Below are positions 9,369 through 27,354 of a DNA stretch of 64,000 nucleotides, in pieces; positions within the stretch are counted from its first letter, which is position 1, and every line of letters begins with the position of its first letter. The stretch comes from Ostreococcus lucimarinus (taxonomy: Eukaryota): the NCBI GenBank assembly GCA_000092065.1, contig CP000598.1; one strand, 5' to 3'. The position numbers were made by a program, and so were the translations under genes. The notes below the pieces were generated by a model. It was given only the letters and a program-made list of their open reading frames with translations, did not search any database and was not told the origin of the DNA.

Positions 9369-9685
9369 TATAACGGTCGACTACGAGGAATACACGCATA
9401 GTCGAAACATGAGCACCCTGTCGCAGAAGGAGCTGAGTTTCCGCTTCGTTACGGATGAGATTGTGCGAGAAGACATGCCACATTCAAATTCGGGGCGATG
9501 GCTCACAAATCAGGCAAGAGAAGACAGGTGCACGTGCAAACTCTCAGCGGAACGAGTTGGTCGTCTCGAAGATCTCGGTGTTTGGTGAGACCAAGCCGAC
9601 GCACAGGAGGAGCACTTCGATGCCTGGAGGTACAGAAGATGTAACTCATCTTAAGCGTACGACTATTCAGACCTTGGGGGTTCCG

Positions 9686-10018
9686 CTTAAGATTTCTTCG
9701 GAATGGAATCTCTGAACGCAAGGCGTGGATGTACATTAAACCATGAACGAGGCGGGCCACGGTTCGATTTTTTGGATTACAAGTGTAGGTCTACTTTTAC
9801 GTTTCGTGGACTCTGCTTGAGTCGGCCGATGTCACCATGTCAGTCAGGTGCTTCGAGTGCACTAGAGACGTGACCGCCCATACACAGGACGTCGAGCTCG
9901 GCGTGCCTGATTTCACGACTCGGCGACCATGGTTTGAAACCGAAATGACCATCGGCTTCAGGCCCAGGCGCGGCCGCAATGCTACTTTAAACTTAATATT
10001 TTTTTTTTGAAAAAAGAG
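9686..10018 (+). repeat. Dispersed repeat R1, copy a (about 335 bp). Begins 'cttaagatttcttcggaatggaatctctgaacgcaaggcgtggatgtacattaaaccatgaacg' and ends in a T10 tract plus 'gaaaaaagagta'.
   Basis: Near-identical copy at 16378-16712. The shared shadow ORF peptide MRPRLGLKPMVISVSNHGRRVVKSGTPSST appears in both. Confidence 0.75.
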
Positions 10019-10227
10019 TAGTAAGAGTAATAAAAATAAACTTTTTTTTGTTTGAGTTGGGGCACCCCAACATGATAAAACCGCACATCGCGGCGAGCCG
10101 CGCGACGACGATCACTTCGGTCACATTTCCAGTCAGTGATTCTCGTCGTGTGATTCATCGTGTTTGACGTCGACGTTGATGTACCACATGTAAGATCTCT
10201 TCAGAACCAATCGTGTGAGTGAAGTGT

Positions 10228-10725
10228 TCAGGCCAAGTCGCGTAACTCATCTAGCGTAAATTGATACTTGTCGAGACTGCGCTTTGAAGGCAGCGTGCCA
10301 CGCGCTCGAGCATTCTTGAGGCACGTCTTACGCAGTATTCTTTTCGCGTGCTGCTTGTAATAATTGAGTTGTCTGTAGTTACCATCGCCGCCGTCACGCT
10401 TCGGCGTATATTGGGCTCTGCTGTAGGCTTGACTCTCGTCCACGTTCTCGTGACACGCGTGTTTCTGGCTGCGTCCAGCAGCTCGGGAGTTGAATAAGCC
10501 GTCGCGCTTCTCTCTCATGTATGCACTTTTACGTTGATGGAGCTCTCCAGCTGGAATGTCCTTTTCGAGAACTCTCACGTCCGCGTCGCCAAACGTGAAG
10601 ATTGGATGTCGTGCGTATTTATGCGAGGCAAGGCGCGCTCTGAGCGAACCTGTCGTCGATCCGATGTACGTTTTGTCACATTTCGCATTATCGCTAAACA
10701 TTTCGTACACGCACCCCGTAGGCAT
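10228..10725 (-). CDS. GIY-YIG family endonuclease (165 aa).
   Basis: N-terminal 'GCVYEMF...(11 aa)...TYIGSTTGSLRARLASH' fits the GIY-(10-11)-YIG spacing with the conserved Arg. A downstream acidic/Asn region follows. Identical copy at 22162..22659. Confidence 0.7.
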   Translation of the reverse strand: MPTGCVYEMFSDNAKCDKTYIGSTTGSLRARLASHKYARHPIFTFGDADVRVLEKDIPAGELHQRKSAYMREKRDGLFNSRAAGRSQKHACHENVDESQAYSRAQYTPKRDGGDGNYRQLNYYKQHAKRILRKTCLKNARARGTLPSKRSLDKYQFTLDELRDLA

Positions 10726-11150
10726 TTGTCCTGGTTACCTATCCATCCCTAAGAAAATATTGTTGCCTCCTCCTGCGGTTTGCAGTCACATTCGAGAGAC
10801 CATAGGTACTCGTGTCGCTGCGTGGGGTGCAAGGTCCGGGGTGTAGATATCGAACCGCCTGATTTCACACCTGGACGTTCGTGATCCGACGAGACCTGAC
10901 GAAATGACGAACTTGTTTTGTCGTCCCCAAATTCGTCAGCCCGTCGTTCGGTCACACTTTGTGTGTACCAATGATGAAAATGACGAAATGTTAAAATATT
11001 TTAATGTTTATTTTTATTTTAGATCTATGACAAGCAACAGTGTAGACCTTTATGAAAACAGTTCGTCATTCGTCATTTCGTCAGGATCCAAACCATGGTC
11101 TTTTCGGTGTCTTGTTGAGTCTTCATATTGCAAATGTACGAATCACAAAA

Positions 11151-11726
11151 TTAGTATGAACACCAGACGACCGCCGGCGCGAGCTCCGTCTCCCCCGTGT
11201 ACCCATTGTTCTTCAGCCACTCGAAGCACCCGTCGCGGTCAATTTCCCAATAGACGCCCTTCTCGTCCCTACCTTGCCTCAGGTGGTCCTCTTCCATTGG
11301 GATCCTGTGGCCCTTTTCCTTCTTGAAGAAGTCCTTGAGCTTATTGCCGACCTTCGTCGCGCTATCTTGTCCACGCGCAGCCGCTGGCAACCACGTCTGG
11401 TATTCGATGAAGATGTCACTGTTGCGGATTTTATTTCCAACCCACTTCTCAGGGAATTCAACAGTGACGCAATGCTCAAACCATCGAGTGAACTTGGGCA
11501 TGCAGCCACGCTTCATTTCCGAATACGCGTCGGTCGTAGGTCTCGTGCGCTCCACATGATAACCGGTACGGAGAAGTTTATATTTATTAATTAAAGACTC
11601 GCGCGTGTTGGCGCTAAATGATTTTATTGCTGCCGAGAGACTCAAGTTTGGCCGTCGTTTGAGTCGCATCGATGGGTCGCGCCCGCCGATATAACGCCGG
11701 CGTTTCGGACACGATCTTGAAAACAA
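11151..11726 (-). CDS. Hypothetical protein (191 aa), part of the duplicated block.
   Basis: Compositionally normal ORF, identical (1 substitution) at 23093..23668. No family recognised. Confidence 0.45.
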   Translation of the reverse strand: MFSRSCPKRRRYIGGRDPSMRLKRRPNLSLSAAIKSFSANTRESLINKYKLLRTGYHVERTRPTTDAYSEMKRGCMPKFTRWFEHCVTVEFPEKWVGNKIRNSDIFIEYQTWLPAAARGQDSATKVGNKLKDFFKKEKGHRIPMEEDHLRQGRDEKGVYWEIDRDGCFEWLKNNGYTGETELAPAVVWCSY

Positions 11727-11746
11727 GCACTGGTTGACTTGATTGA

Positions 11747-14272
11747 TTAGGAAACCTTATCCGTGCCTTTTACGCTGAGCCCGGTCATGGACGGCTTCGT
11801 CGGCATGGTGAACGCGGTGTAGTCCGCCGCCGTGGGCACCGTGATGCTCGTGTCGTACGACATCCCGGAGCACGCCGACGCATCGGCGGGAGCAAGCATT
11901 TCGACACCACTTTCGAGTTTCAAGACGTACCGGTCGCCAGTCGATGGTTGTTTGAACGTGGTGCCATCGGGGATCAGGACATCCGGACGGCGATGGTAAC
12001 CATTGTTGTCGTCGCACTCCTCGTTGCCATACTGGTCGACCTCGGGCGCCGCGCGCGAACCAGTCATCGGATTGAAGCAAATGAACGGCGCGTCGCCCAA
12101 CCAACCGCCTTCGTAACGCACGTTGAGATTCACCCCGGAGTAGTCGGTACCGGATGGAGAGCGCAGCAACACGGCGTCCGTGGGTATCTTGCCTTGAAGC
12201 TGGAGAGGCGCATCCATGAACTTCTTTGACGCGGAGTCCGAAGGATCTTCGAGCCACGCCATGCCCTCCCAATTGCTTGAGCTCCACTCGTAGTGCACAT
12301 CCAATTTGTTGGGTTCCTCGCAAACGTCGGTAGTGGCGGTGCAACTCAAAGTGTCGAGGTTCGCAGGTGTAGCTTCGAAGAGAACCATATGAACTTCTCC
12401 CGAGTCAAAGAATGAGTTGGTTGGGTCCATTACGACTTCAGCGCCGAGGGTGCCGGAAACGTCTTCCTTCAACGAGCCGGTATCTTTGTCGAAGACGTAC
12501 TTTTTATAAGTGCTTCGAGCGTCGTTGTATCCGTTCGGCGAGCCGTAGAACTGGCTGTCGTGACTGCTCGCACTCGATAGCTTCGTCTGGTCGATACACC
12601 GCTCGCCGCACGTGAGTGCGAGGTGGCTGCTGAGCGACCCAGGGGGGACGGTTTGCGCGTCAGACACTTTGAAGTGCGTCAGGTTAAGCAAACTCGCAGA
12701 GCCTCGGCCGAAGATGCTTCCCCAGCAGCGTATGATTTGGTTGTCAATGTCAGCCATCGTGAGCGCACGCGGAGTCGTGATTGAGTTCGTGTTCAGCGAT
12801 CCACCGTTCCAAGTTCGCTTCGACGACAACACGAGTGCGTTCGCGTCGGAGTCATACCTGAACTTGACCTCAACTTCTGCAGCGTTAGTGTCATCCCAGA
12901 ACCAGCCTGTGATCGTCGCCCCTTGGTAGTCGCTTGCGCTTCGCACCGTCGCCGTGAACTTGTACAACACCCCGCGTGAGACTTTGAGCCTCTTGTTCAC
13001 GTTCAGTATCGGATCATCCCAATCGACAATTTCCTCTACTACGTTCCCGTCGGTGAACGCGGTTTGAGCGATAGTCTTCTCGGCGGTACTGAGCGCGGTG
13101 TCGGAAATGTAGTCGTAATCGGAAATGTAGAGATTGCCCGGATAGTGCAGATCAGCATTATACGTCTTGCCGTCGCTGCCTGTAGCCTGAAGATGCACGT
13201 AGCTTTGAAGGTTCACCTTCGCCCCGTTGCTGTCGTACGCGCCGTAGCGCTCACCGAAGAACGATCTGTTCTCGAGTTCATCGCAGAATGACTGCCCGTA
13301 CGCCTTCGTCTTGACGAGCGTAGCGGTAGTCACCAATTGACCCGCTTGTGTCGAACCATTATCAAAGTCGATGGTCTGGAAAGAGGCCTTCGTGATGTCG
13401 TTTTCTGCGCGCGATTTAGCACCCGCGGTGAATGAATTGCTGCCTCGTGTCACCTCTTCCCACCACGTGACCCCGGTCGCCGTGCAATCCGAATCCGCGT
13501 CGGTGGTTTCGCACTCGCGACGAACCACACCTTTGATGCGTTGGGACGCGGTCGAGCCAGTCGGCGATTGGTACGTAAAGGTAAAGTTTTTCACCAAGAT
13601 TTTGTCAGACTTGATGGCGACGTCATCGCGCTTGACGATCATTTCCGTGTCGATGTTCGGCATTTCTGGGGTATCGCTGAGGGCTACCCAGACGTTCGTC
13701 TTGAAATCACGGGTATCGCTCGCGTCGTCGATGTCTGGGCCCGTGGCGTTGACGACCCAACGGTACGTAACCTTACCCTTGATTCGGTCGCCGTCGCTGT
13801 TGTCACAGTGGAAAGGATCGATCTCAGCGATGTATGGGCCAGTGTTCAGGTTCGCCGTCCAGTTCACCGAGGCGACGTAGCAAAGAACCATGTTTGGTAT
13901 CTGGAAAATTTCGGTACTTACAGCGTCGACGAACGTCTCCGCCGGCGGCGCCGTGGCGTAGTCGGACGTCGAAGAGAACGAAGACACTTCGAGAGGCGTC
14001 ACCTCGACGAGCGAACGACCATCGATTCGAGACGAACCAGAAGACGTCGTCGAAACACCCTCTGACGGGATCATGGTGACTTTACGCGGCGTCAACGCCG
14101 CCTTGAGCGCGTTCGTCTTCGCCGCGCCCGACAGCCCGCTGACGGTGGTCGGGGTCGGGGCCGGGGCCGGGGTCGCGTCGTCATCCCTGAGCCCGATGCC
14201 GAGGCCGGTGCCAAGGGCGACCACCACGGCGGCGACACCAACGATCGCGATCGCAACGCCACGTCTCACCAT
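11747..14272 (-). CDS. Secreted or membrane-anchored hypothetical protein (841 aa). N-terminal hydrophobic anchor MVRRGVAIAIVGVAAVVVALGTGLGIG, PAPAPTPT linker, large Thr/Ser/Asp-rich beta-type ectodomain with scattered Cys.
   Basis: Long uninterrupted ORF. Duplicated at 23689..26220 (843 aa; extra PA in the linker). Stop is 21 bp upstream of the start of the 191-aa ORF. Confidence 0.6.
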   Translation of the reverse strand: MVRRGVAIAIVGVAAVVVALGTGLGIGLRDDDATPAPAPTPTTVSGLSGAAKTNALKAALTPRKVTMIPSEGVSTTSSGSSRIDGRSLVEVTPLEVSSFSSTSDYATAPPAETFVDAVSTEIFQIPNMVLCYVASVNWTANLNTGPYIAEIDPFHCDNSDGDRIKGKVTYRWVVNATGPDIDDASDTRDFKTNVWVALSDTPEMPNIDTEMIVKRDDVAIKSDKILVKNFTFTYQSPTGSTASQRIKGVVRRECETTDADSDCTATGVTWWEEVTRGSNSFTAGAKSRAENDITKASFQTIDFDNGSTQAGQLVTTATLVKTKAYGQSFCDELENRSFFGERYGAYDSNGAKVNLQSYVHLQATGSDGKTYNADLHYPGNLYISDYDYISDTALSTAEKTIAQTAFTDGNVVEEIVDWDDPILNVNKRLKVSRGVLYKFTATVRSASDYQGATITGWFWDDTNAAEVEVKFRYDSDANALVLSSKRTWNGGSLNTNSITTPRALTMADIDNQIIRCWGSIFGRGSASLLNLTHFKVSDAQTVPPGSLSSHLALTCGERCIDQTKLSSASSHDSQFYGSPNGYNDARSTYKKYVFDKDTGSLKEDVSGTLGAEVVMDPTNSFFDSGEVHMVLFEATPANLDTLSCTATTDVCEEPNKLDVHYEWSSSNWEGMAWLEDPSDSASKKFMDAPLQLQGKIPTDAVLLRSPSGTDYSGVNLNVRYEGGWLGDAPFICFNPMTGSRAAPEVDQYGNEECDDNNGYHRRPDVLIPDGTTFKQPSTGDRYVLKLESGVEMLAPADASACSGMSYDTSITVPTAADYTAFTMPTKPSMTGLSVKGTDKVS

Positions 14273-14404
14273 CGTCGCGCGTTGAAATGCGGCGACGACA
14301 AGTGGCGACGGTGACGCGATCTGCCCGCACGCAATTCAATTCCTTCGGGTCACCTTATCTTTTGGAGCCCCCGGAAACGCGACTGTTTACCAATACGATG
14401 GTTC

Positions 14405-14665
14405 CCGGGTATTGATTACTGGGCCTGTTGGCGCCCCGCGGGTGTGTGTGTGCCAGCCCGTAGGGTTTAAGGTTTAGGATCCGAAATATGGAGCCTCGCT
14501 ATTAAGCCGGGGATCCTCCGCGGGCACGCGCCCCCGCGGGCGTGTGTGTTTTCGCGGTCGGTCGGACGGGAAGCCTGTTGGCGCCCCACGGGTTTGTGTG
14601 TCGGTCCTTAGCGTTTGGGGTTTAGTATCGGACATACGGAGCCTCACTATTTAGCGGTATGACCA
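14405..14665. repeat. Tandem about 150-bp repeats containing degenerate TTTAGGG-type telomere-like units ('ggtttaggatc', 'gggtttaaggtttagg') and 'gcctgttggcgccccgcgggt'. Related array at 17465-17640.
   Basis: Two successive units can be aligned by eye (14420-14530 vs 14570-14660). Shares 'ggcgccccgcgggtttgtgtg..agggtttagg..atcggacatatggagcctcac' with 17520-17640. Confidence 0.65.
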
Positions 14666-14685
14666 CATATATTAATTGATTTATA

Positions 14686-14759
14686 CCATTCATCCCGCGC
14701 ATAAAATCGGGTAGATTACTGTACAGTAATCTACCCGACTTTATGCGCGGGATGAATGG
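14686..14759. repeat. 74-bp near-perfect palindrome/hairpin (37-bp arms, 1 mismatch) with core ATTACTGTACAGTAAT flanked by cccgcgc/gcgcggg.
   Basis: The reverse complement of 14686-14722 equals 14723-14759 except one base. A related hairpin is at 17833-17890. Confidence 0.8.
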
Positions 14760-14920
14760 CATAAATCCCATAGTATATGGGGACCGGACCGGCGGGACGT
14801 GTGATTTTTTACCGTAGGGGTCATGATTGGTCGTTCGGGGGTACTCGTATGAAATAATGAAACACCATACTTTTATTTACATTTTGGTTTATTAAAAAAA
14901 CCCGTACGTGCATTTACTAC

Positions 14921-15062
14921 AGAATTGACCACTTTTCGCGCGGGTTTCACCAGAAAGCTTCAAAAATCGTGCCTTTTCTAAAACTCAATTTTCGCTAGGG
15001 TTTAGCGCCCCCGGTTTTCCGAGGATGCGGGCAGATCTCGCCGTCGGCGCCACTCGTCGACG
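14921..15062 (+). promoter_or_regulatory. Conserved upstream module, copy 2, ending 4 bp before the ATG of 15066..16181.
   Basis: Alignment with copies 1, 3 and 4. Core 'ctagggtttagcgcccccggttttccgaggatgcgggcagatctcgccgtcggcgccactcgtcgacg'. Confidence 0.6.
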
Positions 15063-15065
15063 ACC

Positions 15066-16181
15066 ATGGCCTCCCCGTCGCTCGATGCCGTGCGTTGGAG
15101 CGAATACCGGGCGCTCATGCAAGCGTGGGAAGCGTTTAACCCACACAGGGAGCTCCTGCGTCGGTTTTTACAGAAGCAATCGCACACGGAGCAGTGCCCA
15201 CCCGGCGTCCCGTACGTACCAGATCTGCCGGAGCCGGAGTACTTCGCCGTGAAGAGACGAATCGAGGCCGGGGAAACCGTTCCATGTCCTGGATTCTTAC
15301 GCGAACGCGACAACCGGCGCAATCAATGCCGCTGCGGGGCTCCACTCAGAGTTGATGACACTGGCAATATCTCCTGCACTTCCAAAATTCCCCGTCATGA
15401 GAACTATGGTCCTGTACCTCGTTGCTGTTGCTGGGCCGAAGAAGAGCACGCTCGTAACCAACGACATGACATGCCGCCGTATATTTTAAGGCCGCCACCC
15501 ATAGTGTCCCCCCCTCAAGTACCACCGTCGTCTCAAGTGCTCTTGAGCTTTTTGGAGGGGGTCAGGCCAAGCATGAACGCCAACTACCTGCGATGCGTTC
15601 AAGACATAGACGAAGAGCTCGCTCGTCTGAATGAGCAGCTTGCGGACAACAGCATTTCAACGACGAGGCGTGAAGCGATTCAACAGCATATAGTGAGCGA
15701 ACGCTCCAAACTTGAGGCCAAAGACACACAGTTACAAGATTTTTTTAACACGACGACCGCACTGGCAGAATCCGTGCACACGTTCGAGCACAGAGTGGCA
15801 GAGAAATACCAGAAAGCTGTGGATGCATACATTAAAGCGCAACTGGATGAAGTGGTCGTACCTCCGGATAGTAGAGGGAATCCAAAGTTTAAGGACTCAG
15901 TCGATGGCATCGACAGAGAGTTGGCCAAGTTAGAATCAGAAAATGGAGGCATCTCCAACGACAGCGCTCGCGCTCGCGTCGCCTCCAAACGTAAGAGCGT
16001 GGAAGAGTGTGAATCAGAGCACAAGCGCCTCAAAACCACTTCGGTTGAGTACAACTTGTCTATTTTGAAAGGGAGTTTGGAAAAAGACAAATCTATGTCT
16101 GCTGAAGACAAAAGACGCTGGGAATGCGTCATAAACGCCGTCGGGTTGTTACGAGCAAACGATGCACCAAGAACGCCGTAG
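15066..16181 (+). CDS. Coiled-coil protein (371 aa); paralog of 18177..19220.
   Basis: Shared segment 'LNEQLADNSISTTRREAIQQHIVSERSKLEAKDTQLQ' vs 'LEAQLQDENISETRRSVIPQHIEDTRAKLKEQDNSLN'. Heptad-rich, Glu/Lys/Arg-rich. Confidence 0.6.
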   Translation: MASPSLDAVRWSEYRALMQAWEAFNPHRELLRRFLQKQSHTEQCPPGVPYVPDLPEPEYFAVKRRIEAGETVPCPGFLRERDNRRNQCRCGAPLRVDDTGNISCTSKIPRHENYGPVPRCCCWAEEEHARNQRHDMPPYILRPPPIVSPPQVPPSSQVLLSFLEGVRPSMNANYLRCVQDIDEELARLNEQLADNSISTTRREAIQQHIVSERSKLEAKDTQLQDFFNTTTALAESVHTFEHRVAEKYQKAVDAYIKAQLDEVVVPPDSRGNPKFKDSVDGIDRELAKLESENGGISNDSARARVASKRKSVEECESEHKRLKTTSVEYNLSILKGSLEKDKSMSAEDKRRWECVINAVGLLRANDAPRTP

Positions 16182-16377
16182 CAACAGTATGGGCAAACAG
16201 TTAGGCGTTCTCCATGGCCTCCATTCGCGCGACCAGAGCGTTGACGCGCTCTTCGAGTTCGTCGATGCGGCGTTGTTTAGCGTCGTTCGCGCTCTCTACA
16301 TCGGCGCGACATAGAATAACGATAATCTATATCTGCTATATCTGCTTAATATTCTGCTTAAGATTTCGGCACCCTCG

Positions 16378-16712
16378 CTTAAGATCTCTTCAGAATGGAA
16401 TCTCTGAATGCAAGGCGTGGATGTACATTAAACCATGAACGGACCACGGTTCGATTTTTTTTATTACAAGTGTAGGTCTACTTTTACGTTTGGTGGACTC
16501 CGCTTGAGTCGGCCGATGTCACCGTGTCAGGTGTTCAGAGTGCACTAGAGACGTGACCGCCGATACACAGGGCGTCGAGCTCGGCGTGCCTGATTTCACG
16601 ACTCGGCGACCATGATTTGAAACCGAAATGACCATCGGCTTCAGGCCCAGGCGCGGCCGCAATGCTACTTTAAACTTAATATTTTTTTTTTGAAAAAAGA
16701 GTACTATAGTAC
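16378..16712 (+). repeat. Dispersed repeat R1, copy b. Preceded (16205-16375) by a fragment of a coiled-coil gene 3' end and the 'atagaataacgata' element also seen at 19255-19270.
   Basis: Direct alignment with 9686-10018. The minus-strand frame at 16205-16290 reads ...DAKQRRIDELEERVNALVARMEAMENA* . Confidence 0.7.
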
Positions 16713-16756
16713 TTTTGGTGTTTAAACGTGTTCGTGATATGATTGATAGTCCGTGA

Positions 16757-17407
16757 TTATACGTCGACTTTTGCGGGCGCCTGTTGGACGTAGATGACTT
16801 GCGGCTGCTGCGGCCGCGTCGCCACGGCGGTGGCGATGAGCTGGTCGCGTCGGTACGCGAAGCACCCGCACCGCCCACAGTAGCAGCACGAGACGATGAG
16901 CAACGTCAGGCCGACGACGGTACCAATGATGATGCCCGCGATCGCGCCACCGTCTGGTTTACAGCAGTCGTCACCGCAGCATACGTTTTGGCCGCCCGTG
17001 TACATACTGCACCATTTACCGCCTTTTTTGTGGAGTGGTGGGCACCCGTGGGCGCCGTCCCAGCATTTGGCTCCATTGGCAACTTCCGTGGCGATTTCTG
17101 TTCCACACGAGGTGTAACTGGAAATTGTGTCCGTACACTTGGACGGGCACGATTGGTCGATCGAGTTGCCATACGGTGGCGGTCCCGCGCTGCACCCGAA
17201 ACAGTCTGAGCACACACCGACCGTCACGCCGTTGTAGGTCCCGGTGTTGTAACAGAACTCTTCGCTCGATGCCCAGGGGTTCGCGCTCGCGTAGCCGCTC
17301 GAAACAACGCAGTCGGTGTGGGTTGAACACGTGTCGCCCGCGTCCGCGCGCGCGGTGTGCGCGACGGCGAGGCCGAAAACGAACGGTACGAGGAGGTTCT
17401 TAAACAT
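16757..17407 (-). CDS. Cys-rich type I membrane protein (about 216 aa). Signal peptide MFKNLLVPFVFGLAVAHTARA, Cys/Gly-rich ectodomain, TM helix AIAGIIIGTVVGLTLLIVSCCYC, short Gln/Pro-rich tail.
   Basis: ORF read on the minus strand. Start moved from the track's 17464 to the ATG at 17407, which precedes the hydrophobic signal. Confidence 0.55.
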   Translation of the reverse strand: MFKNLLVPFVFGLAVAHTARADAGDTCSTHTDCVVSSGYASANPWASSEEFCYNTGTYNGVTVGVCSDCFGCSAGPPPYGNSIDQSCPSKCTDTISSYTSCGTEIATEVANGAKCWDGAHGCPPLHKKGGKWCSMYTGGQNVCCGDDCCKPDGGAIAGIIIGTVVGLTLLIVSCCYCGRCGCFAYRRDQLIATAVATRPQQPQVIYVQQAPAKVDV

Positions 17408-17464
17408 CTTTGGCGTGGGTTTATCTCGCAAAAGGATTTCAGCGAGGCTTGAGGTGCGCCGCAA

Positions 17465-17640
17465 AGTGAGGCCCGGAGATCCGGGGATCCTCCGCAGCCC
17501 CGCGGGCGTGTGCCTGGCGTGTGCCCTTCGCGGTCGGTCGGACGAGGGGCCCGTTGGCGCCCCGCGGGTTTGTGTGCCAGCCCCAGGGTTTAGGGGTTAG
17601 GATCGGACATATGGAACCTCACTAATTAGCCGCATGACCT
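17465..17640. repeat. Telomere-like repeat unit related to 14405-14665.
   Basis: Shared blocks 'gatcctccgc..ccccgcgggcgtgtg', 'tcgcggtcggtcggacg', 'gttggcgccccgcgggtttgtgtgccagcc', 'agggtttaggggttaggatcggacatatgga'. Confidence 0.65.
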
Positions 17641-17832
17641 CATACATTAAGTTATTTATATCTAGTCATCGCGCGAAATGGCGTGGGTAAATTACCGTAC
17701 TAGGGTTTCCGTAAATAAAATACGTACCGAAAATAATGAATTAATTTACACGGGCGTGCCACGACGTCGTCGCACGCGCTCGTGAAAATTTGGTTGACGG
17801 CTTGGATTCGAGATTTTGGGGAGGTAAAATTC

Positions 17833-17890
17833 GGCCAAATCCCGCGCATATATTACTGTACAGTAATCAAAGCGCGGGATGTGGCCAAAG
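17833..17890. repeat. Imperfect hairpin with the same ATTACTGTACAGTAAT core.
   Basis: 'ggccaaatcccgcgcatatattactgtacagtaatcaaagcgcgggatgtggcc' folds back on itself. Confidence 0.6.
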
Positions 17891-18007
17891 TCTTTGGGTC
17901 ACAGCCCCTCACTTTGGGGGCTGCAGTGACGGGATGTGGGAATTTTACCGTATGGGTCGTGACTCGTCGTTGGGGGTACTACTATGAAATCCCATAATTC
18001 TATTGTA

Positions 18008-18176
18008 CATAGGGTTTAGAAATTAGGGTTTAGACGTCAAAAATCGCTCGGGTTCCATCAGAAACGTGTCAAAAACGGGCCTTTTCTGAAACTCGATTTT
18101 TGCTAGGGTTTAGCGCCCCCGGTTTTCCGAGGATGCGGGCAGAGCTCGCCGTCGGAGCCACTCGTCGCCGCACACG
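18008..18176 (+). promoter_or_regulatory. Conserved upstream module, copy 3 (extended form with 'tagggtttagaaattagggtttagac' head), ending at the ATG of 18177..19220.
   Basis: Alignment with copies 1, 2 and 4. Confidence 0.6.
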
Positions 18177-19220: not shown

Positions 19221-19276
19221 TATATGTGGACGTATATTTTGTTGTCCACGAATGGCGCGATATAGAATAACGATAT

Positions 19277-19504
19277 CTAGCCGCTCTCCACCGCCTCCAG
19301 TCTCGACACAATGTCACTGAGCTCACTGCGGAGTTCGTCGATTTGCTGATCTCTCGATGCAACGGCGGCCTCTAAATCGGCGATTTGAGCGTCGTGCTGT
19401 TGCTGTATGCGGTCAACTTCCTGTAATGCTGCGGTTGAGAGCGTTGAAATTGCCGATTCTTGGAGGTGCTTGAAATCGGTAACAACCTCACCGTAGACGA
19501 ACAA
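19277..19504 (-). CDS. Possible terminal coding segment of a convergently transcribed coiled-coil gene (75 aa shown; ...DELRSELSDIVSRLEAVESG*).
   Basis: Heptad pattern. The stop is followed by the 'atatcgttattctat' element that also occurs at 16300. Upstream exons not identified. Confidence 0.3.
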   Translation of the reverse strand: MFVYGEVVTDFKHLQESAISTLSTAALQEVDRIQQQHDAQIADLEAAVASRDQQIDELRSELSDIVSRLEAVESG

Positions 19505-19757
19505 TCCGCGCCGCGCGCGCGCCAGTCCGGTGCGGGGTCGACCGAACTAGCCGTTGGTCGTAGTTTCCGACCGTTTGAATTTGAATTCGCTGCGCGCGCG
19601 GCGCTTGAAGACGACCGTTGGGGCCCAACGAGCATGTAAATCTTTGAGGCAGTTTTCGCCGCGCATGACGCGACGTGGTGTGCGTCGGAGTACGTCTCCG
19701 GCCGTCTCGACGGCGCGGAAAGGTTGCAAGAAGTCTCCTCGACGCATTACATTAAAT

Positions 19758-19930
19758 CTAGGGTTTAGAAATTAGGGTTTAGACATCAAAAATCGCCGAG
19801 GTTCCATCAGAAAGTTGTCAAAAACGTGGCTTTTCTAAAACTCGATTTTTACTAGGGTTTAGCGACCTCCGGTTTTTCGGCGGAGGAATTGCGTGCGGGC
19901 AGATCTCGTCGTTGTCGCCACTCGTCGACG
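19758..19930 (+). promoter_or_regulatory. Conserved upstream module, copy 4, ending about 17 bp before the ATG (19947) of the ARM-repeat gene.
   Basis: Alignment with copies 1-3. Confidence 0.6.
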
Positions 19931-19946
19931 CGGCGATGCTCTCAAC

Positions 19947-21832
19947 ATGGCAAAGGTGAAGATAATGCTAATATTGTCGATGGTGTTGATACTGCGCATG
20001 CCGAGCGCACTCGCAGGCGCACTCACACACGCACTCCTCCGTGTGGGTGGTCCACGTGTAAGGCAAGCTGTCGAAAAAGGGATGAAACAAGGCATTATGG
20101 ATTCGTTTCCAGGAGGCGTCCAGGACCTCCTCGCATACTTGCACCGCCACAGAGAGGACGAAATCAAACAGGAGTTTGGGTGCATGGCGCTCATGATCAT
20201 GTGCCGGGAAAACACTGAGAACAGACGCATCGCCGGAGAGCAGGGCGCGATCCAGGCCGTCGTGAACGCCTTGAACCGCCACAGAGAGAACAAGGAAGTG
20301 CAGAGGGACGGACACATGGCGCTCGTGATCATGTGCGAGGACAACACCGAGAACAGACGCATCGCCGGAGAGCAGGGCGCGATCCAGGCCGTCGTGGACG
20401 CCTTGAACCGCCACAGAGGGAACAGGGAAGTGCAGAGGGACGGACAACTGGCGCTCGCGATCATGTGCAAGGACAACACTGAGAACAGACGCATCGCCGG
20501 AGAGCAGGGCGCGATCCAGACCGTCGTGGACGCCTTGAACCGCCACAGAGGGAACAGGGAAGTGCAGAGGGACGGACAACTGGCGCTCGCGATCATGTGC
20601 AAGGACAACACTGAGAACAGACGCATCGCCGGAGAGCAGGGCGCGATCCAGACCGTCGTGGACGCCTTGAACCGCCACAGAGGGAACAAGGAAGTCCAGG
20701 CGAACGGGCACATGGCGCTCGCGAGCATGTGCATTAACAACACTGAGAACAGACGCATCGTAGACGCGTATGGGCAAACAGTTAGTTATTCTCCACAGCC
20801 TCCATTCGCGCGACCAGAGCGTTGAAGGACAGCGGGCGCAGTGATGATGCGCAAATAAACGCACTGTACGCGATTGCAAACGAGATGGCGCACGCTGTGA
20901 ACATGATCTCGATTCAAGGTGTCGCTGAAGGCCCGGGCGTTGAAGAACGAGTAAAACACACACAAGATTTCCTACAGCAACTTTTGTCGGACGTCGACAT
21001 CAAACTTGAGATCGAAGAAAAGCAAAACGCCGAGGCTCTGCGTGTGGTATTGCGAGTGCACGCGTATGGTCGTGCCATGAAAATTATCGAGGATCACATG
21101 CTAGAATATGCGCGCGCTGAACAAGTGGAGGAGCTGGCCGTGCTCGGACAAGAATCTGCGGCACTGTTAGAAGAACAAAACCTCCTTTCCATGGGTTTTG
21201 GCGTCAAGGAGCTGAATATGTCGATACTGGCAATCGACGCGGAGCATTTCACTGTGCACCTAGAGAAAGCTACTTCCCTGGACGAAGTCGGCAGTGCTGT
21301 GGCCATTCTCAACGCCGTCAATTCCATTGCAGTCCGTCATCTCGAGTGGAGAGATGCGAGCGTTGCAACTTTTAGCCACCTTGAAACCGAAGAGTCCATT
21401 GGTATTGAAGTCAAAATCAACAGGGACGTACTATATTCTGCTGCGATGCTTCTGAAAGATCACGAATCCCAGCTGAACCAAGAACTGGCGAGGCGCGCGC
21501 GCGAATGGAAGCTTCTGTTTAAGAATTTTGGAAAAGTGAAATTCAACCAGACGCTTGAAGAAATGGTTCAGGTGGAGCTCACCTCGCCTGAAGGCGCGGA
21601 CGCTGATTTAACACGCCGTGCTAAAAAATTTGTGGATTGGTGCGTGGAATCTTCACAGCAGCTGAGCCGAGGGGAGTTTAACCAGCGTCTTCCTGGGATT
21701 ACGGAAACGGCATATATCAGCCTAAAATCCCTCGCACAGAAGTCTGCCAGTTCGCTCGTTAAGATCGCACAAAAAACAGCTGCATCGAGGCGTAGCAAAA
21801 CAAAGACGTCAATATTCGGGTTTGCGCGCTAA
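19947..21832 (+). CDS. Armadillo-type repeat protein. Five or more tandem 40-aa units 'NRRIAGEQGAIQAVVDALNRHRGNREVQRDGQLALAIMCKDNTE', then a C-terminal domain paralogous to the C-terminus of the DUF285 giant. The reading frame breaks near 20770-20825, at a junction with a dispersed repeat; possibly a pseudogene or unresolved splice.
   Basis: Track ORFs 19893..20825 and 20822..21832 are in frames +1 apart. No GT..AG interval of plausible size restores the frame (checked candidates are 39, 31 and 26 nt). The junction sequence 'tatgggcaaacagttag..tctcca..gcctccattcgcgcgaccagagcgttga' recurs at 16185-16250. Confidence 0.45.
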
Positions 21833-22161
21833 ATCCGCCAACCGAACGCCAGAATTGTTATGTTACGCTCGATGATAACATGGTTGGGTTGGGGCAAATG
21901 CCCACAAATCAGCGTCAGGCGAAGGAAGACAGGTGCGTCTGCAAATTCCAAATTCTCGGCAGAACAAGTTCGTCGACTGGAAGAGCTCGGCCGGTTTGGA
22001 GACAAACCCGCCATATTGGAAGAGCACTTCGCTGCCTGAGGGTACAGAAGATGTAGCTAATCAGAAGCGTGCGACCGTTAAGACCTTGGGGATTCGACTC
22101 GCTTAAGATTTCGGCACCCTCGCTTAAGATTTCTCCAGAACGAATCGTGTGAGTGAAGTGG

Positions 22162-22659
22162 TCAAGCCAAGCCACGCAACTCATCTACCGTAAATTGATA
22201 CTTGTCGAGACTGCGCTTCGAAGGCAGCGTGCCGCGCGCTCGAGCATTCTTGAGGCACGTCTTACGCAGTATTCTTTTCGCTTGCTGCTTGTAATAACTG
22301 AGTTGTCTGTAGTTACCATCGCCGCCGACCCGCTTCGGCGTATATTGAGCTCTGCTGTAGGCCGGACTCCCGTCCACGTTCTCGTGGCACGCGTGTTTCT
22401 GGCTGCGTCCAGCAACTCGGGAGTTGAATAAGCCGTCGCGCTTCTCTCTCATGTAGGCACTTTTACGTTGATGGAGCTCTCCAGCTGGAATGTCCTTTTC
22501 GAGAACTCTCACGTCCGCGTCGCCAAACTTGAAGATTGGATGTCGTGCGTATTTATGCGAGGCAAGGCGCGCTCTGAGCGAACCTGTCGTCGATCCGATG
22601 TACGTCTTGTTACATTTCGCATTATCGCTAAACATTTCGTACACGCATCCCGACGGCAT
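22162..22659 (-). CDS. GIY-YIG family endonuclease, second copy.
   Basis: Near-identical to 10228..10725, with a few substitutions (for example D/N, T/K). Confidence 0.7.
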   Translation of the reverse strand: MPSGCVYEMFSDNAKCNKTYIGSTTGSLRARLASHKYARHPIFKFGDADVRVLEKDIPAGELHQRKSAYMREKRDGLFNSRVAGRSQKHACHENVDGSPAYSRAQYTPKRVGGDGNYRQLSYYKQQAKRILRKTCLKNARARGTLPSKRSLDKYQFTVDELRGLA

Positions 22660-23092
22660 TTGTCCTGATTACCTATCCATCCCTAAGAAAATATTGTTGC
22701 CAAAAGTGCTCCTCCTGTGGTTTGCAGTCACATTCGAGAGACCATAGGTACTCGTGTCGCTGCGTGGGGTGCAAGGTCCGGGGTGTAGATATCGAACCGC
22801 CTGATTTCACACCTGGACGTTCGTGATCCGACGAGACCTGACGAAATGACGAACTTGTTTTGTCGTCCCCAAATTCGTCAGCCCGTCGTTCGGTCACACT
22901 TTGTGTGTACCAATGATGAAAATGACGAAATGTTAAAATATTTTAATGTTTATTTTTATTTTAGATCTATGACAAGCAACAGTGTAGACCTTTATGAAAA
23001 CAGTTCGTCATTCGTCATTTCGTCAGGATCCAAACCATGGTCTTTTCGGTGTCTTGTTGAGTCTTCATATTGCAAATGTACGAATCACAAAA

Positions 23093-23668
23093 TTAGTATG
23101 AACACCAGACGACCGCCGGCGCGAGCTCCGTCTCCCCCGTGTACCCATTGTTCTTCAGCCACTCGAAGCACCCGTCGCGGTCAATTTCCCAATAGACGCC
23201 CTTCTCGTCCCTACCTTGCCTCAGGTGGTCCTCTTCCATTGGGATCCTGTGGCCCTTTTCCTTCTTGAAGAAGTCCTTGAGCTTATTGCCGACCTTCGTC
23301 GCGCTATCTTGGCCACGCGCAGCCGCTGGCAACCACGCCTGGTATTCGATGAAGATGTCACTGTTGCGGATTTTATTTCCAACCCACTTCTCAGGGAATT
23401 CAACAGTGACGCAATGCTCAAACCATCGAGTGAACTTGGGCATGCATCCACGCTTCATTTCCGAATACGCGTCGGTCGTAGGTCTCGTGCGCTCCACATG
23501 ATAACCGGTACGGAGAAGTTTATATTTATTAATTAAAGACTCGCGCGTGTTGGCGCTAAATGATTTTATTGCTGCCGAGAGACTCAAGTTTGGCCGTCGT
23601 TTGAGTCGCATCGATGGGTCGCGCCCGCCGATATAACGCCGGCGTTTCGGACACGATCTTGAAAACAA
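23093..23668 (-). CDS. Hypothetical protein (191 aa), second copy.
   Basis: Identical to 11151..11726 except T/A at one residue. Confidence 0.45.
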   Translation of the reverse strand: MFSRSCPKRRRYIGGRDPSMRLKRRPNLSLSAAIKSFSANTRESLINKYKLLRTGYHVERTRPTTDAYSEMKRGCMPKFTRWFEHCVTVEFPEKWVGNKIRNSDIFIEYQAWLPAAARGQDSATKVGNKLKDFFKKEKGHRIPMEEDHLRQGRDEKGVYWEIDRDGCFEWLKNNGYTGETELAPAVVWCSY

Positions 23669-23688
23669 GCACTGGTTGACTTGATTGA

Positions 23689-26220
23689 TTAGGAAACCTT
23701 ATCCGTGCCTTTTACGCTGAGCCCGGTCATGGACGGCTTCGTCGGCATGGTGAACGCGGTGTAGTCCGCCGCCGTGGGCACCGTGATGCTCGTGTCGTAC
23801 GACATCCCGGAGCACGCCGACGCATCGGCGGGAGCAAGCATTTCGACACCACTTTCGAGTTTCAAGACGTACCGGTCGCCAGTCGATGGTTGTTTGAACG
23901 TGGTGCCATCGGGGATCAGGACATCCGGACGGCGATGGTAACCATTGTTGTCGTCGCACTCCTCGTTGCCATACTGGTCGACCTCGGGCGCCGCGCGCGA
24001 ACCAGTCATCGGATTGAAGCAAATGAACGGCGCGTCGCCCAACCAACCGCCTTCGTAACGCACGTTGAGATTCACCCCGGAGTAGTCGGTACCGGATGGA
24101 GAGCGCAGCAACACGGCGTCCGTGGGTATCTTGCCTTGAAGCTGGAGAGGCGCATCCATGAACTTCTTTGACGCGGAGTCCGAAGGATCTTCGAGCCACG
24201 CCATGCCCTCCCAATTGCTTGAGCTCCACTCGTAGTGCACATCCAATTTGTTGGGTTCCTCGCAAACGTCGGTAGTGGCGGTGCAACTCAAAGTGTCGAG
24301 GTTCGCAGGTGTAGCTTCGAAGAGAACCATATGAACTTCTCCCGAGTCAAAGAATGAGTTGGTTGGGTCCATTACGACTTCAGCGCCGAGGGTGCCGGAA
24401 ACGTCTTCCTTCAACGAGCCGGTATCTTTGTCGAAGACGTACTTTTTATAAGTGCTTCGAGCGTCGTTGTATCCGTTCGGCGAGCCGTAGAACTGGCTGT
24501 CGTGACTGCTCGCACTCGATAGCTTCGTCTGGTCGATACACCGCTCGCCGCACGTGAGTGCGAGGTGGCTGCTGAGCGACCCAGGGGGGACGGTTTGCGC
24601 GTCAGACACTTTGAAGTGCGTCAGGTTAAGCAAACTCGCAGAGCCTCGGCCGAAGATGCTTCCCCAGCAGCGTATGATTTGGTTGTCAATGTCAGCCATC
24701 GTGAGCGCACGCGGAGTCGTGATTGAGTTCGTGTTCAGCGATCCACCGTTCCAAGTTCGCTTCGACGACAACACGAGTGCGTTCGCGTCGGAGTCATACC
24801 TGAACTTGACCTCAACTTCTGCAGCGTTAGTGTCATCCCAGAACCAGCCTGTGATCGTCGCCCCTTGGTAGTCGCTTGCGCTTCGCACCGTCGCCGTGAA
24901 CTTGTACAACACCCCGCGTGAGACTTTGAGCCTCTTGTTCACGTTCAGTATCGGATCATCCCAATCGACAATTTCCTCTACTACGTTCCCGTCGGTGAAC
25001 GCGGTTTGAGCGATAGTCTTCTCGGCGGTACTGAGCGCGGTGTCGGAAATGTAGTCGTAATCGGAAATGTAGAGATTGCCCGGATAGTGCAGATCAGCAT
25101 TATACGTCTTGCCGTCGCTGCCTGTAGCCTGAAGATGCACGTAGCTTTGAAGGTTCACCTTCGCCCCGTTGCTGTCGTACGCGCCGTAGCGCTCACCGAA
25201 GAACGATCTGTTCTCGAGTTCATCGCAGAATGACTGCCCGTACGCCTTCGTCTTGACGAGCGTAGCGGTAGTCACCAATTGACCCGCTTGTGTCGAACCA
25301 TTATCAAAGTCGATGGTCTGGAAAGAGGCCTTCGTGATGTCGTTTTCTGCGCGCGATTTAGCACCCGCGGTGAATGAATTGCTGCCTCGTGTCACCTCTT
25401 CCCACCACGTGACCCCGGTCGCCGTGCAATCCGAATCCGCGTCGGTGGTTTCGCACTCGCGACGAACCACACCTTTGATGCGTTGGGACGCGGTCGAGCC
25501 AGTCGGCGATTGGTACGTAAAGGTAAAGTTTTTCACCAAGATTTTGTCAGACTTGATGGCGACGTCATCGCGCTTGACGATCATTTCCGTGTCGATGTTC
25601 GGCATTTCTGGGGTATCGCTGAGGGCTACCCAGACGTTCGTCTTGAAATCACGGGTATCGCTCGCGTCGTCGATGTCTGGGCCCGTGGCGTTGACGACCC
25701 AACGGTACGTAACCTTACCCTTGATTCGGTCGCCGTCGCTGTTGTCACAGTGGAAAGGATCGATCTCAGCGATGTATGGGCCAGTGTTCAGGTTCGCCGT
25801 CCAGTTCACCGAGGCGACGTAGCAAAGAACCATGTTTGGTATCTGGAAAATTTCGGTACTTACAGCGTCGACGAACGTCTCCGCCGGCGGCGCCGTGGCG
25901 TAGTCGGACGTCGAAGAGAACGAAGACACTTCGAGAGGCGTCACCTCGACGAGCGAACGACCATCGATTCGAGACGAACCAGAAGACGTCGTCGAAACAC
26001 CCTCTGACGGGATCATGGTGACTTTACGCGGCGTCAACGCCGCCTTGAGCGCGTTCGTCTTCGCCGCGCCCGACAGCCCGCTGACGGTGGTCGGGGTCGG
26101 GGCCGGGGCCGGGGCCGGGGTCGCGTCGTCATCCCTGAGCCCGATGCCGAGGCCGGTGCCAAGGGCGACCACCACGGCGGCGACACCAACGATCGCGATC
26201 GCAACGCCACGTCTCACCAT
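23689..26220 (-). CDS. Secreted or membrane-anchored hypothetical protein (843 aa), second copy.
   Basis: Identical to 11747..14272 except PAPAPAPTPT vs PAPAPTPT. Confidence 0.6.
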   Translation of the reverse strand: MVRRGVAIAIVGVAAVVVALGTGLGIGLRDDDATPAPAPAPTPTTVSGLSGAAKTNALKAALTPRKVTMIPSEGVSTTSSGSSRIDGRSLVEVTPLEVSSFSSTSDYATAPPAETFVDAVSTEIFQIPNMVLCYVASVNWTANLNTGPYIAEIDPFHCDNSDGDRIKGKVTYRWVVNATGPDIDDASDTRDFKTNVWVALSDTPEMPNIDTEMIVKRDDVAIKSDKILVKNFTFTYQSPTGSTASQRIKGVVRRECETTDADSDCTATGVTWWEEVTRGSNSFTAGAKSRAENDITKASFQTIDFDNGSTQAGQLVTTATLVKTKAYGQSFCDELENRSFFGERYGAYDSNGAKVNLQSYVHLQATGSDGKTYNADLHYPGNLYISDYDYISDTALSTAEKTIAQTAFTDGNVVEEIVDWDDPILNVNKRLKVSRGVLYKFTATVRSASDYQGATITGWFWDDTNAAEVEVKFRYDSDANALVLSSKRTWNGGSLNTNSITTPRALTMADIDNQIIRCWGSIFGRGSASLLNLTHFKVSDAQTVPPGSLSSHLALTCGERCIDQTKLSSASSHDSQFYGSPNGYNDARSTYKKYVFDKDTGSLKEDVSGTLGAEVVMDPTNSFFDSGEVHMVLFEATPANLDTLSCTATTDVCEEPNKLDVHYEWSSSNWEGMAWLEDPSDSASKKFMDAPLQLQGKIPTDAVLLRSPSGTDYSGVNLNVRYEGGWLGDAPFICFNPMTGSRAAPEVDQYGNEECDDNNGYHRRPDVLIPDGTTFKQPSTGDRYVLKLESGVEMLAPADASACSGMSYDTSITVPTAADYTAFTMPTKPSMTGLSVKGTDKVS

Positions 26221-27354
26221 CGTCGCGCGTTGAAATGCGGCGACGACAAGTGGCGACGGTGACGCGATCTGCCCGCACGCAATTCAATTCCTTCGGGTCA
26301 CCTTATCTTTTGGAGCCCCGGAGATGCGACTGTTTACCAATACGATGGTTCCCTTTTTTCGGTCGCGAAAGCGCGCGGTCGCCGGGTCAACCAACACCTT
26401 CATCTCCGGGGGGGATCGGAGATTGTTTTTTACGGTCGCGCGCGCGGTCGCCGCGGACGCCCCCGCCCTCGTCGACGCCGCGCTGACTGTCGCGCGCTGA
26501 CTGACACGCGCTGACCGACGCGCGCGCGATCGAACGCCGCGAGTGGGGAAAGGCGAACGCGCGACGTCGTCGCGCGCGCCCCCGCGCGTCCCGGACCGAA
26601 CCGCGCGTCGTCGTCGTCGCCGTCGCCGTCGCGCGCGTACGCTTCGGACCGCGAAAATCGTTTTTCGTCGCGGGGGGACTGCGGTGCGGGTCGTCTCACA
26701 CTTCGGGACGCCGACGATGGTGTCGTCCGGCGACGCCGACGTCGACGACGCGGTCGAACGACGCCATCGGCGCGGTCGCGGTCGCGCCGTTCGCGATCTT
26801 CTGCCGTCGTCCTCGGCGGCGCGCGCGAACACCGTCCCGCCGTTTGAAGCAACCGGTCGAGGCGCGCTCCCGAGGTGGTTTTGCAAGAGCTGTCGGAAAG
26901 CGCTCGACGTGTTTCGTGATTTCGACGGGGAGCTGAAGACGTGTCGACTGTGTTTGCGCGCGCGCAAGAAAGACGCGAAACGCAAACGCGCGCTACGGCG
27001 GGCGGACGCGAAAAGGTCGGGCGACGGCGACGGTAAAAAAGGCGCGGCTTCGTAGAGAAGCCGAACGCAGGGAACGACGACGAGTCGCGGATGCGCGCGA
27101 AACGATCGATCTTTGATTCGACACGCCTTCGGTATAGTAGTGTGTTTTGCTCTGTAGCCTCGCGTGTTGTAACTACCGTTGTACATTTACATCAATGCGT
27201 CGTCGCGTTCGCGGCGATTTTACGTCGTCGTTCGTTCGCGACGCTTCGTTGGACATGGCGCTTCGACACAGAAGAATCCGACGCGCGCACAGTCCGTGGT
27301 GTCGCGCGCACGTCATCGCACACGTCTCATTTCTTATTTCTCCGCTCCAACTCG

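Follow-up and report, generated by a model that had tools for sequence, protein, structure and literature searches.

We analysed a 64,000-nt stretch (hereafter the window) of chromosome 18 of Ostreococcus lucimarinus CCE9901 (contig CP000598.1), a small outlier chromosome (SOC) of 149,386 bp. Here a 4.2-kb block occurs as two direct copies 12 kb apart, each carrying on the minus strand an 841-aa gene, a "191-aa ORF" (open reading frame) and a gene for a small GIY-YIG-fold protein (Table 1). The account we favour, with a probability of about 0.75, is a segmental duplication on the SOC, followed by homogenisation, of a chimera between a host gene and the remnant of a repeated primase-helicase/GIY-YIG element. 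Labels such as L001 denote the DNA contigs compared, and labels such as P0032 denote proteins.

The duplicated block and its three genes

A sequence-only reading of the window had described two direct copies more than 99% identical and had taken them as a sign of very recent duplication or active mobilisation. The blastn self-comparison gave 98.82% identity over 4230 columns, with 35 mismatches and 3 gaps, and the differences were unevenly spread. Per-site comparison placed 30 of the 35 substitutions and an 8-bp indel in the part holding the GIY-YIG gene (10191-10776; ~95% identity). The stretch 10777-14367 contains three substitutions, all within the "191-aa ORF", and one in-frame 6-bp indel that accounts for products of 841 and 843 aa; the 841-aa coding sequence is otherwise identical in both copies. 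The repeat is a mosaic of 3.6 kb at ~99.9% and 0.6 kb at ~95%. The duplication stands, at an identity below the earlier figure (98.8% overall, 95% in the GIY-YIG gene), and the data support a recent duplication or a recent homogenisation.

Table 1. Coordinates of the block, its genes and the associated repeats in the window
Feature	Position	Strand	Copy 2 or partner	Details
Block, copy 1	10191-14406			Direct repeat; blastn self-comparison
Block, copy 2	22125-26353			Direct repeat; blastn self-comparison
841-aa gene, XP_001422333	11747-14272	-	23689-26220, 843 aa, XP_001422338
3' remnant of helicase gene	11154-11549	-	23096-23491	Codons 602-733 of a 733-aa Prim-Pol/Zn/SF3 helicase (DUF5906)
Interval holding the mosaic switch	10777-11370			~95% identity below, ~99.9% above; per-site comparison
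Candidate replication origin	10895-11085		22837-23027	Helicase-GIY spacer; perfect 17-nt inverted repeat, ~157-nt AT-rich core
165-aa GIY-YIG-fold protein, XP_001422336	10228-10725	-	22162-22659, XP_001422332
Proximal 15-nt repeat	10188-10206		9684-9703, 16376-16395, 22121-22140	Directly 3' of the GIY-YIG gene
Inter-motif segment, copy 1	9684-10190			R1 (9684-10020) plus 10021-10190; diverged counterpart of L001:10532-11036
"Leader", distal 3' region of the element	9537-9696		21949-22112	78% identity; blastn

The "191-aa ORF" proved not to be a gene of its own. Its last 132 codons encode residues 602-733 of a 733-aa primase-helicase, and what precedes them is read-through that begins at a TTG. 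The remnants in copies 1 and 2 are 97.7% and 97.0% identical to the intact gene (L001:7374-9575; tblastn), and the DNA homology of the window to the intact element stops at 11543. The intact protein combines a Prim-Pol N-terminus (DxD and SGGYH motifs), a Cys cluster and a Walker-A superfamily 3 (SF3) helicase. It matches Pfam DUF5906, relatives match both Prim-Pol and DUF5906, and the helicase domain matches the NrS-1 primase helicase (PDB 6k9c). Full-length helicase genes across contexts have dN/dS values of 0.05-0.16, indicating strong purifying selection. Pfam and PHROGs searches with the three ORFs of the block had given nothing significant except a weak C-terminal match of the "DNA primase" PHROG, later borne out as a true lead, and megablast of the whole 4.2-kb block against a phage collection gave no match. 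The NrS-1/DUF5906 primase-helicases of phages and plasmids resemble the element protein in the helicase domain (PDB NrS-1, Pfam DUF5906), in the Prim-Pol matches of its relatives and in a candidate iteron/AT-rich origin beside the gene. They differ in that the host here is a eukaryote, in that identity to phage proteins is just 23-33% and confined to the helicase domain, and in that the window retains only the last 132 residues. Separately, a 423-aa helicase fragment (P0162, protein cluster P0118) is recorded on a 104-Mb contig, which may reflect contamination of, or transfer into, a large eukaryotic assembly.

The 841-aa gene has a different background. Full-length homologues exist at 49-99% identity; the 49% homologue lies on a 401-kb contig among PTPLA, TFIID, BCCIP, RimM, P-type ATPase and SNARE genes, the 62% homologue adjoins a PPR gene, and neither a helicase nor a GIY-YIG gene is near either of them. 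Because these homologues occupy ordinary chromosomal contexts, the gene is a member of a conserved Mamiellales host gene family and not cargo of the element. Its product has an N-terminal hydrophobic segment after RR, a Pro/Thr linker and a Cys-containing, mostly beta ectodomain. There was no Pfam match, and the AlphaFold2 (AF2) model was poor (pLDDT 43, mostly beta). The ORF described earlier is present in both copies, and its proposed secretion is consistent with the hydrophobic segment, which could serve as a signal peptide or a signal anchor.

The third gene had been assigned to the GIY-YIG nucleases, and this assignment held. The 165-aa protein has an N-terminal GIY-YIG domain, in which the VY(7)...YIG(20-22) motif is present, and a conserved helical C-terminal domain. 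The window proteins had no Pfam match at E<=0.1, and the family profile found no GIY-YIG match among PDB sequences, so a fold search was needed. In the AF2 model the N-terminal domain reached pLDDT 83-92, and the top eight Foldseek matches in the PDB were all GIY-YIG structures, led by I-TevI (1ln0; probability 0.99, TM 0.56-0.59) and then UvrC-N chains; Slx1 chains came lower in the list, and E-values were weak (0.04). Homologues at 48-63% identity carry PF01541, one of them (P0025, 49%) scoring 23.1 against a gathering score of 22.6, and of 10 relatives obtained by an exhaustive profile search, 9 score above the Pfam GIY-YIG threshold. The predicted fold and these relatives together confirm membership of the GIY-YIG superfamily. 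The statement that the block has no reverse transcriptase (RT), intron or intein context was also borne out: no RT domain was found in any ORF of the block with Pfam or PHROGs, the neighbour is a DNA primase-helicase and a Penelope-like element is not indicated, Rfam gave no family match on 9000-27000 (intron families included), and there is no intein host gene.

Core residues Y7, Y20, R31, H35 and N79 are kept in this protein, and Lys66 stands at the position of the metal-binding Glu. An hhalign comparison with the I-TevI catalytic domain pairs Y7/Y6, Y20/Y17, R31/R27, H35/H31 and Lys66/Glu75. Every copy above 84% identity carries Lys here ("RKSAYM"), every relative at 30-64% identity carries Glu ("REGEYI", "IEVRYL"), and the column holds Glu in 131 of 142 family representatives and Lys in none. 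The metal-binding Glu is required for catalysis in I-TevI, UvrC and related GIY-YIG enzymes. Since this Glu is replaced, the protein of the Ostreococcus-resident clade is predicted to be nuclease-dead or strongly altered. The gene itself is under purifying selection and is not the decayed remnant that had been considered: 10 of 11 distinct copies have stayed intact, with dN/dS values of 0.22 for the window pair and 0.2-0.35 over deeper distances. The two window genes differ at dS 0.129, that of copy 2 being closest to L014/L017 (dS 0.037) and that of copy 1 to L001 (dS 0.087); they belong to different sublineages of the element family.

The helicase/GIY-YIG element, its candidate origin and its relatives

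A near-identical relative of the GIY-YIG protein (P0033) lies on eight long metagenome contigs (L001-L008; chromosomes of ~870 kb), and in the seven that extend upstream (L001-L007) its gene is found 425 nt downstream of a full-length or frameshifted 733-aa DUF5906 gene. The unit of helicase, spacer and GIY-YIG gene has a MICAH/FMN-dehydrogenase flank with four different upstream flanks (L001; L002/L004/L005/L007; L003; L006). It also occurs at the L015/L016/L021 locus and, with an inverted second helicase fragment, in L019/L020; it is degraded in L009 and differently truncated in L018. Some contigs carry several copies (two GIY-YIG genes in L002, two helicase copies in L013 and in L019), and a solo GIY-YIG cassette of ~590 bp is present in L002/L004/L005 (L002:2643-3229, ending inside the 15-nt motif described below). 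A third O. lucimarinus GIY-YIG gene (P0032; XP_001421474) lies on a 709-kb chromosome. Both genes occur in one element in L001-L007, L010, L012, L014, L016, L019, L025, L027, L032 and L034. Clusters at 90% identity hold 898 GIY-YIG and 601 helicase members, against 16-84 for neighbouring genes; many cluster members are below full length and may be truncated genes or contig-end fragments, and two examined copies (L021, L009) are frameshifted. The suspicion of a repeated, selfish-looking unit was thus sound for the GIY-YIG gene, which does belong to a multi-copy helicase/GIY-YIG element. A literature search found no description of a Prim-Pol-helicase/GIY-YIG element of Ostreococcus, and it appears to be undescribed.

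The 425-nt spacer between the two genes has the features of an origin. Its 17-nt inverted repeat is made of GACGAA units (four matches against 0.01 expected), and the spacer as a whole contains seven GACGAA/TTCGTC units against 0.7 expected. An element with a helicase subtype 81% identical shows the same spacer architecture with different, co-varying arms (L013 12260-12450). We infer a putative iteron/AT-rich origin beside its initiator gene. The inverted-repeat spacer is also a recurrent recombination boundary.

No transposon-like termini could be defined for the element. No terminal inverted repeat (TIR) was found in L006:6800-11400 and no target-site duplication (TSD), and the fixed ends of a DNA transposon or a miniature inverted-repeat transposable element (MITE) were not seen. 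The 5' homology ends raggedly between contexts (L002:7054, L006:6976/7002, L003:7206, L001:7232); a boundary at L001:7231 that had looked sharp was rejected once the reference was changed. A 392-aa ORF with tyrosine-recombinase-like motifs (HLLRHTWAT ... HSPEANEKY) adjoins the block in L017 (484-1662, minus strand) and in L130/L133-L135. Homologues (52% and 30%) lie upstream of the L013-type helicase (L013 6068-7282 and 7222-8721), and a 26-aa N-terminal remnant lies between the window copies (17754-17831). Searches of Pfam and the PDB gave this ORF no support, and it is a candidate tyrosine recombinase by its motifs.

At the 3' side, the 15-nt direct repeat AAGAT[CT]TCT[TC]CAGAA occurs at 9688, 10192, 16380 and 22125. 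Elements carry it twice, after the GIY-YIG stop codon and again 410-616 nt further on (L001, L015/L016, L021, L022 and window copy 1). Copy 2 has one fused repeat in place of the pair and is without the ~500-nt inter-motif segment. A further fragment of R1, the first part of that segment in copy 1, is found at 16376-16703. It is preceded by the pre-motif "GCTTAAGATTTCGGCACCCT", as is the copy 2 junction; copy 1 is without it (16340-16703 compared with 22100-22140). Because the pre-motif is common to the fragment and the junction, the segment that copy 2 lacks may have moved to this position, 5.7 kb away. The motif is a recurrent breakpoint, seen at the copy 2 junction, at the end of the L002 solo cassette and at the start of R1. 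It does stand at the start of both copies and at the R1 edge, as first described. Since the motif pair is internal to the element and fused in copy 2, the edge at 10191/22125 is an internal deletion between direct repeats or an insertion edge, and not the terminus of the element. The diverged leader reported before both copies is likewise present (Table 1), and that of copy 2 (22021-22146) is 82% identical to L001:11030-11151.

More distant relatives widen the picture. At 30-64% GIY-YIG identity, a 286-434-aa protein is always encoded directly upstream of the GIY-YIG gene, and a Prim-Pol/DUF5906 gene is adjacent. This protein family (L010 2400-3704; L012 5408-6268; L024-L041) is missing from the Ostreococcus-resident copies. 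The helicase-GIY linkage is kept down to 31% GIY-YIG identity on 14-18-kb contigs, and on contigs of 14-18.5 kb (sampled as L011, L012, L030 and L035) there are additional conserved genes as well as DNA methylases and an HHH_8 protein; these contigs look like small viral or plasmid genomes. The degraded copy in L009 retains, after its helicase-GIY pair, fragments of two extra genes of these contigs in the same order, and for this reason the Ostreococcus copies are probably remnants of a larger integrated element. Telo-box motifs (AAACCCTA) in intergenic regions of the distant elements (L010, L025, L032) suggest green-lineage nuclear promoters.

A primase-S3H helicase with a GIY-YIG protein is a module shared by virophages, polintons and polinton-like viruses (PLVs) (Yutin et al. 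2013, PMC3671162). The element resembles their replication modules in linking a Prim-Pol/SF3 helicase to a small GIY-YIG gene, and in being integrated, multi-copy and decaying in a protist genome. It differs in that no capsid, packaging ATPase, protease or protein-primed DNA polymerase B (pPolB) was identified in the window or the relatives, in that the Ostreococcus-resident form is reduced to helicase, spacer and GIY-YIG gene (~3.9 kb), and in lacking the Zn-ribbon fusion of the GIY-YIG protein known from virophages (PMC3671162). Genes for a double-jelly-roll major capsid protein, a penton protein or a packaging ATPase are absent from the window, and conserved proteins of 448 and 327 aa in L011/L030/L035 had no Pfam or PDB sequence match. 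In IMG/VR, the GIY-YIG profile, the 448-aa protein of L030 and the L010 helicase were each without relatives; the helicase profile recovered just phage-type helicase domains at 23-33% identity and no close relative. A 4605-aa protein returned by a profile search (P0253) was rejected as a low-complexity false match.

History of the block and competing explanations

The junction between the 841-aa gene and the helicase remnant, at helicase residue 602, is common to both window copies, to L017/L130-L135 and to L127/L128. The L127 remnant belongs to the L013 subtype and is followed by L013-type genes in place of the GIY-YIG gene; the homology of L127 to the window also ends in the helicase-GIY spacer, at 10897, at the inverted repeat. 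As the same junction occurs in L127/L128 with another downstream module, the chimera predates the duplication, and what follows the spacer is an exchangeable module. Two environmental contigs (L130, L131) represent alleles of the copy 1 locus, in which the sequence after the block matches window 9723-5737, where a giant DUF285 gene lies, at 96% identity. These alleles share the L017 block (P0046 protein), which is 98.5% identical to copy 2 and 98.2% to copy 1 and has a GIY-YIG gene of the copy 2/P0032 type; along with it they have an inter-motif segment like that of L001. Only one block is present in L131: the copy 1 flank adjoins it at one side, and the region that flanks copy 2 (window 26826-28125) is reached after 5.5 kb at the other. 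Taken together, the single-block contig, the alternative flanks, the GIY-YIG sublineages and the paralogous genes upstream of both copies indicate a structural polymorphism probably driven by recombination with gene conversion.

These observations fit the following sequence of events. Before the duplication, the 841-aa host gene would have become fused to ~2 kb from the 3' end of a virus-like replicon element with many copies, a fusion that would have deleted the first 601 codons of the Prim-Pol/SF3-helicase gene. The chimera would then have been duplicated on the SOC by ectopic or unequal recombination, and part of the duplicated block may have been kept near-identical by gene conversion. Since the two copies have GIY-YIG parts of different sublineages, this part would have been swapped with element copies elsewhere in the genome, through gene conversion within the helicase-GIY spacer. 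What each copy retains is the C-terminal remnant of the helicase, the candidate origin, the GIY-fold gene and the 3' region, with the ~500-nt segment in copy 1 only. The features of a SOC segmental duplication are all present (a low-GC outlier chromosome, direct copies with unique flanks, and single-block and alternative-flank haplotypes), and the Lys-for-Glu protein is presumably not an active nuclease and presumably does not drive movement of the block.

Among the alternatives, homing at the level of the cassette keeps most weight, and we still regard it as unlikely. Here the ~0.6-kb GIY-YIG gene would be, or would have been, a free-standing homing endonuclease gene that spreads between element copies by double-strand-break repair with co-conversion of its flanks. 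Such spread would yield both the mosaic pattern and a solo cassette, and the one in L002 does end inside the motif. GIY-YIG lineages do change places between loci, with copy 2/P0032-like genes occurring at the copy 1 locus in environmental alleles, and the intact, selected state of 10 of 11 copies fits as well. The gene further resembles the free-standing GIY-YIG homing genes (seg/mob of phage T4; I-TevI) in its best structural match, the I-TevI catalytic domain, in its small stand-alone form with an N-terminal GIY-YIG and a helical C-terminal domain, and in the solo cassette and mosaic flanks. It differs in its eukaryotic nuclear setting and in the Lys that every Ostreococcus-resident copy (>84% identity) has for the catalytic Glu, which argues against current activity. 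Neither a demonstrated target site nor a clean pair of filled and empty sites was recovered (window 19420 compared with L002 diverges on both sides). Ordinary gene conversion among repeats explains mosaics without a nuclease.

Somewhat less probable is a domesticated module, in which the helicase/GIY-YIG pair or its remnants would be endogenous virophage/PLV-like sequence exapted for defence against prasinoviruses and kept on the SOC, and the duplication a selected copy-number variation. Two reports link virus resistance in Ostreococcus to the SOC (PMC5082852, PMC13390643). Virophage/polinton-type elements typically pair a primase-helicase with a GIY-YIG protein (PMC3671162); strong purifying selection acts on the helicase, and the GIY-YIG protein is selected despite its lost catalytic Glu. 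Yet there was no match to PADLOC defence-system models, the window copies are without the helicase proper, and the shorter cluster members (perhaps truncated genes or contig-end fragments) and two frameshifted copies resemble a decaying selfish element.

The proposal made at the outset, that the whole 4.2-kb block is a non-canonical mobile or cargo element whose GIY-YIG nuclease cuts the AAGATYTCTYCAGAA motif and drives copying, now looks very improbable. The copies are near-identical, the motif stands at the edge of both and of R1, and environmental contigs carry the block again, flanked differently on the 841-aa side. Those flanks, however, belong to alleles of one DUF285-adjacent locus; the block contains a truncated helicase gene and a host gene found elsewhere without a GIY-YIG gene; its GIY-YIG part has a history unlike the rest and encodes Lys in place of the catalytic Glu; the motif is internal to the element, and the other edge (14406/26353) is without it; and the ragged ends show neither TIR nor TSD. 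An assembly artefact, the false expansion of a single locus, can be set aside despite the high identity over 3.6 kb, since the copies differ by 35 substitutions and 3 indels, have unique flanks and differ in R1 (present in copy 1, absent from copy 2), and both the block and the two GIY-YIG variants were recovered independently on environmental contigs.

Several points weigh against the duplication-and-homogenisation account. The order of events may have been an old duplication with later homogenisation or a recent duplication with replacement of the GIY-YIG part. No capsid gene was identified in the distant relatives, whose virus-like nature is putative, and the inactivity of the Lys66 protein is a prediction from its sequence. 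Purifying selection acts on the GIY-YIG gene (omega 0.2-0.35 over deeper distances), and this, with the ~590-bp solo cassette ending at the motif, leaves room for some nuclease-related mobility of the cassette, past or present.

Chromosomal setting and implications

The O. lucimarinus SOC, chromosome 18, was described as a 149-kb chromosome of 53% GC with 78 ORFs, many of them sugar-metabolism and methylation genes (Moreau et al. 2012, PMC3491373). The window agrees with this description in composition and in its genes, among them those for FkbM methyltransferases, glycosyltransferases, nucleotide-sugar enzymes and a nucleotide-sugar transporter. Structural polymorphism of this kind is known SOC behaviour in Ostreococcus. 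The region shares with the hypervariable SOCs of other Mamiellales (O. tauri chromosome 19, the O. mediterraneus SOC) the chromosome type, low GC, species-specific genes, sugar and methyltransferase genes, and repeated segments with alternative haplotypes in natural populations. It differs from them in that a piece of a virus-like replicon element lies within the duplicated segment.

Paralogous genes precede the two block copies. Copy 1 lies downstream of a giant ORF (window 1545-9368, plus strand; 2607 aa) with DUF285 (BspA-like) repeats in 75-nt tandem units and an exact internal duplication of 822 bp (1902-2723 = 2835-3656); environmental alleles exceed 3063 aa (L130). Copy 2 lies downstream of a 336-aa ORF that is 29% identical to the C-terminal part of the giant ORF. 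Within 19893-21832 (plus strand), an ARM-repeat-like ORF with 132-nt tandem repeats (20053-20844) continues into this coiled-coil 336-aa ORF, and the two are probably one gene directly "downstream" of copy 2. A weak HHH_8 match of the 336-aa ORF, considered as a link to the HHH_8 gene of L030, was rejected; the ORF is a paralogue of the DUF285 C-terminal part.

Other repeats and genes of the window were noted in passing. At the 841-gene side of the block lies a repeat of ~200-300 bp with a 60-nt hairpin palindrome (14550-14860, palindrome 14663-14782; again at 17526-17700). The same repeat is found on that side in L006, L009, L017, L127 and L128 and could represent a MITE-like repeat or a hotspot of recombination. 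A 69-nt repeat, D11 (1236, 14938, 18046 and 19795), forms promoter-like segments ending in GCTAGGGTTTAGC, a plant-type telo-box or single telomere unit. The high-GC part contains an 880-aa ORF (34624-37266, plus strand) with a C-5 DNA methyltransferase, a CXXC unit and a Tudor-like domain.

The duplication alone is ordinary SOC plasticity. The interest lies in the repeated Prim-Pol-helicase/GIY-YIG element, which was outside the original claim. Outlier regions of O. lucimarinus were described as poor in transposable elements in a recent survey (10.1101/2025.04.21.649811), and the element is found in a genome reported to be nearly free of them. It ties Ostreococcus chromosomes to 14-18-kb virus-like contigs of marine metagenomes, and it is a repeated sequence available for ectopic recombination and gene conversion on a chromosome implicated in prasinovirus resistance. 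More speculatively, and with the odds clearly against it, Ostreococcus may carry an unrecognised family of replicons, minimal and derived from viruses, with a Prim-Pol/SF3 helicase, an iteron/AT-rich origin, a Glu-less GIY-YIG protein and possibly a tyrosine-recombinase-like integrase. Such a family would multiply in subtelomeres and on the "viral immunity" SOC and seed rearrangements, its dead GIY-YIG protein being kept because of a new role in DNA binding or against viruses. Should the Lys66 protein prove to be an inactive nuclease that is conserved, it would represent the exaptation of a homing-endonuclease fold, and if the element is an endogenous virophage/PLV-like replicon, Ostreococcus would offer a tractable system of host, giant virus and parasite.

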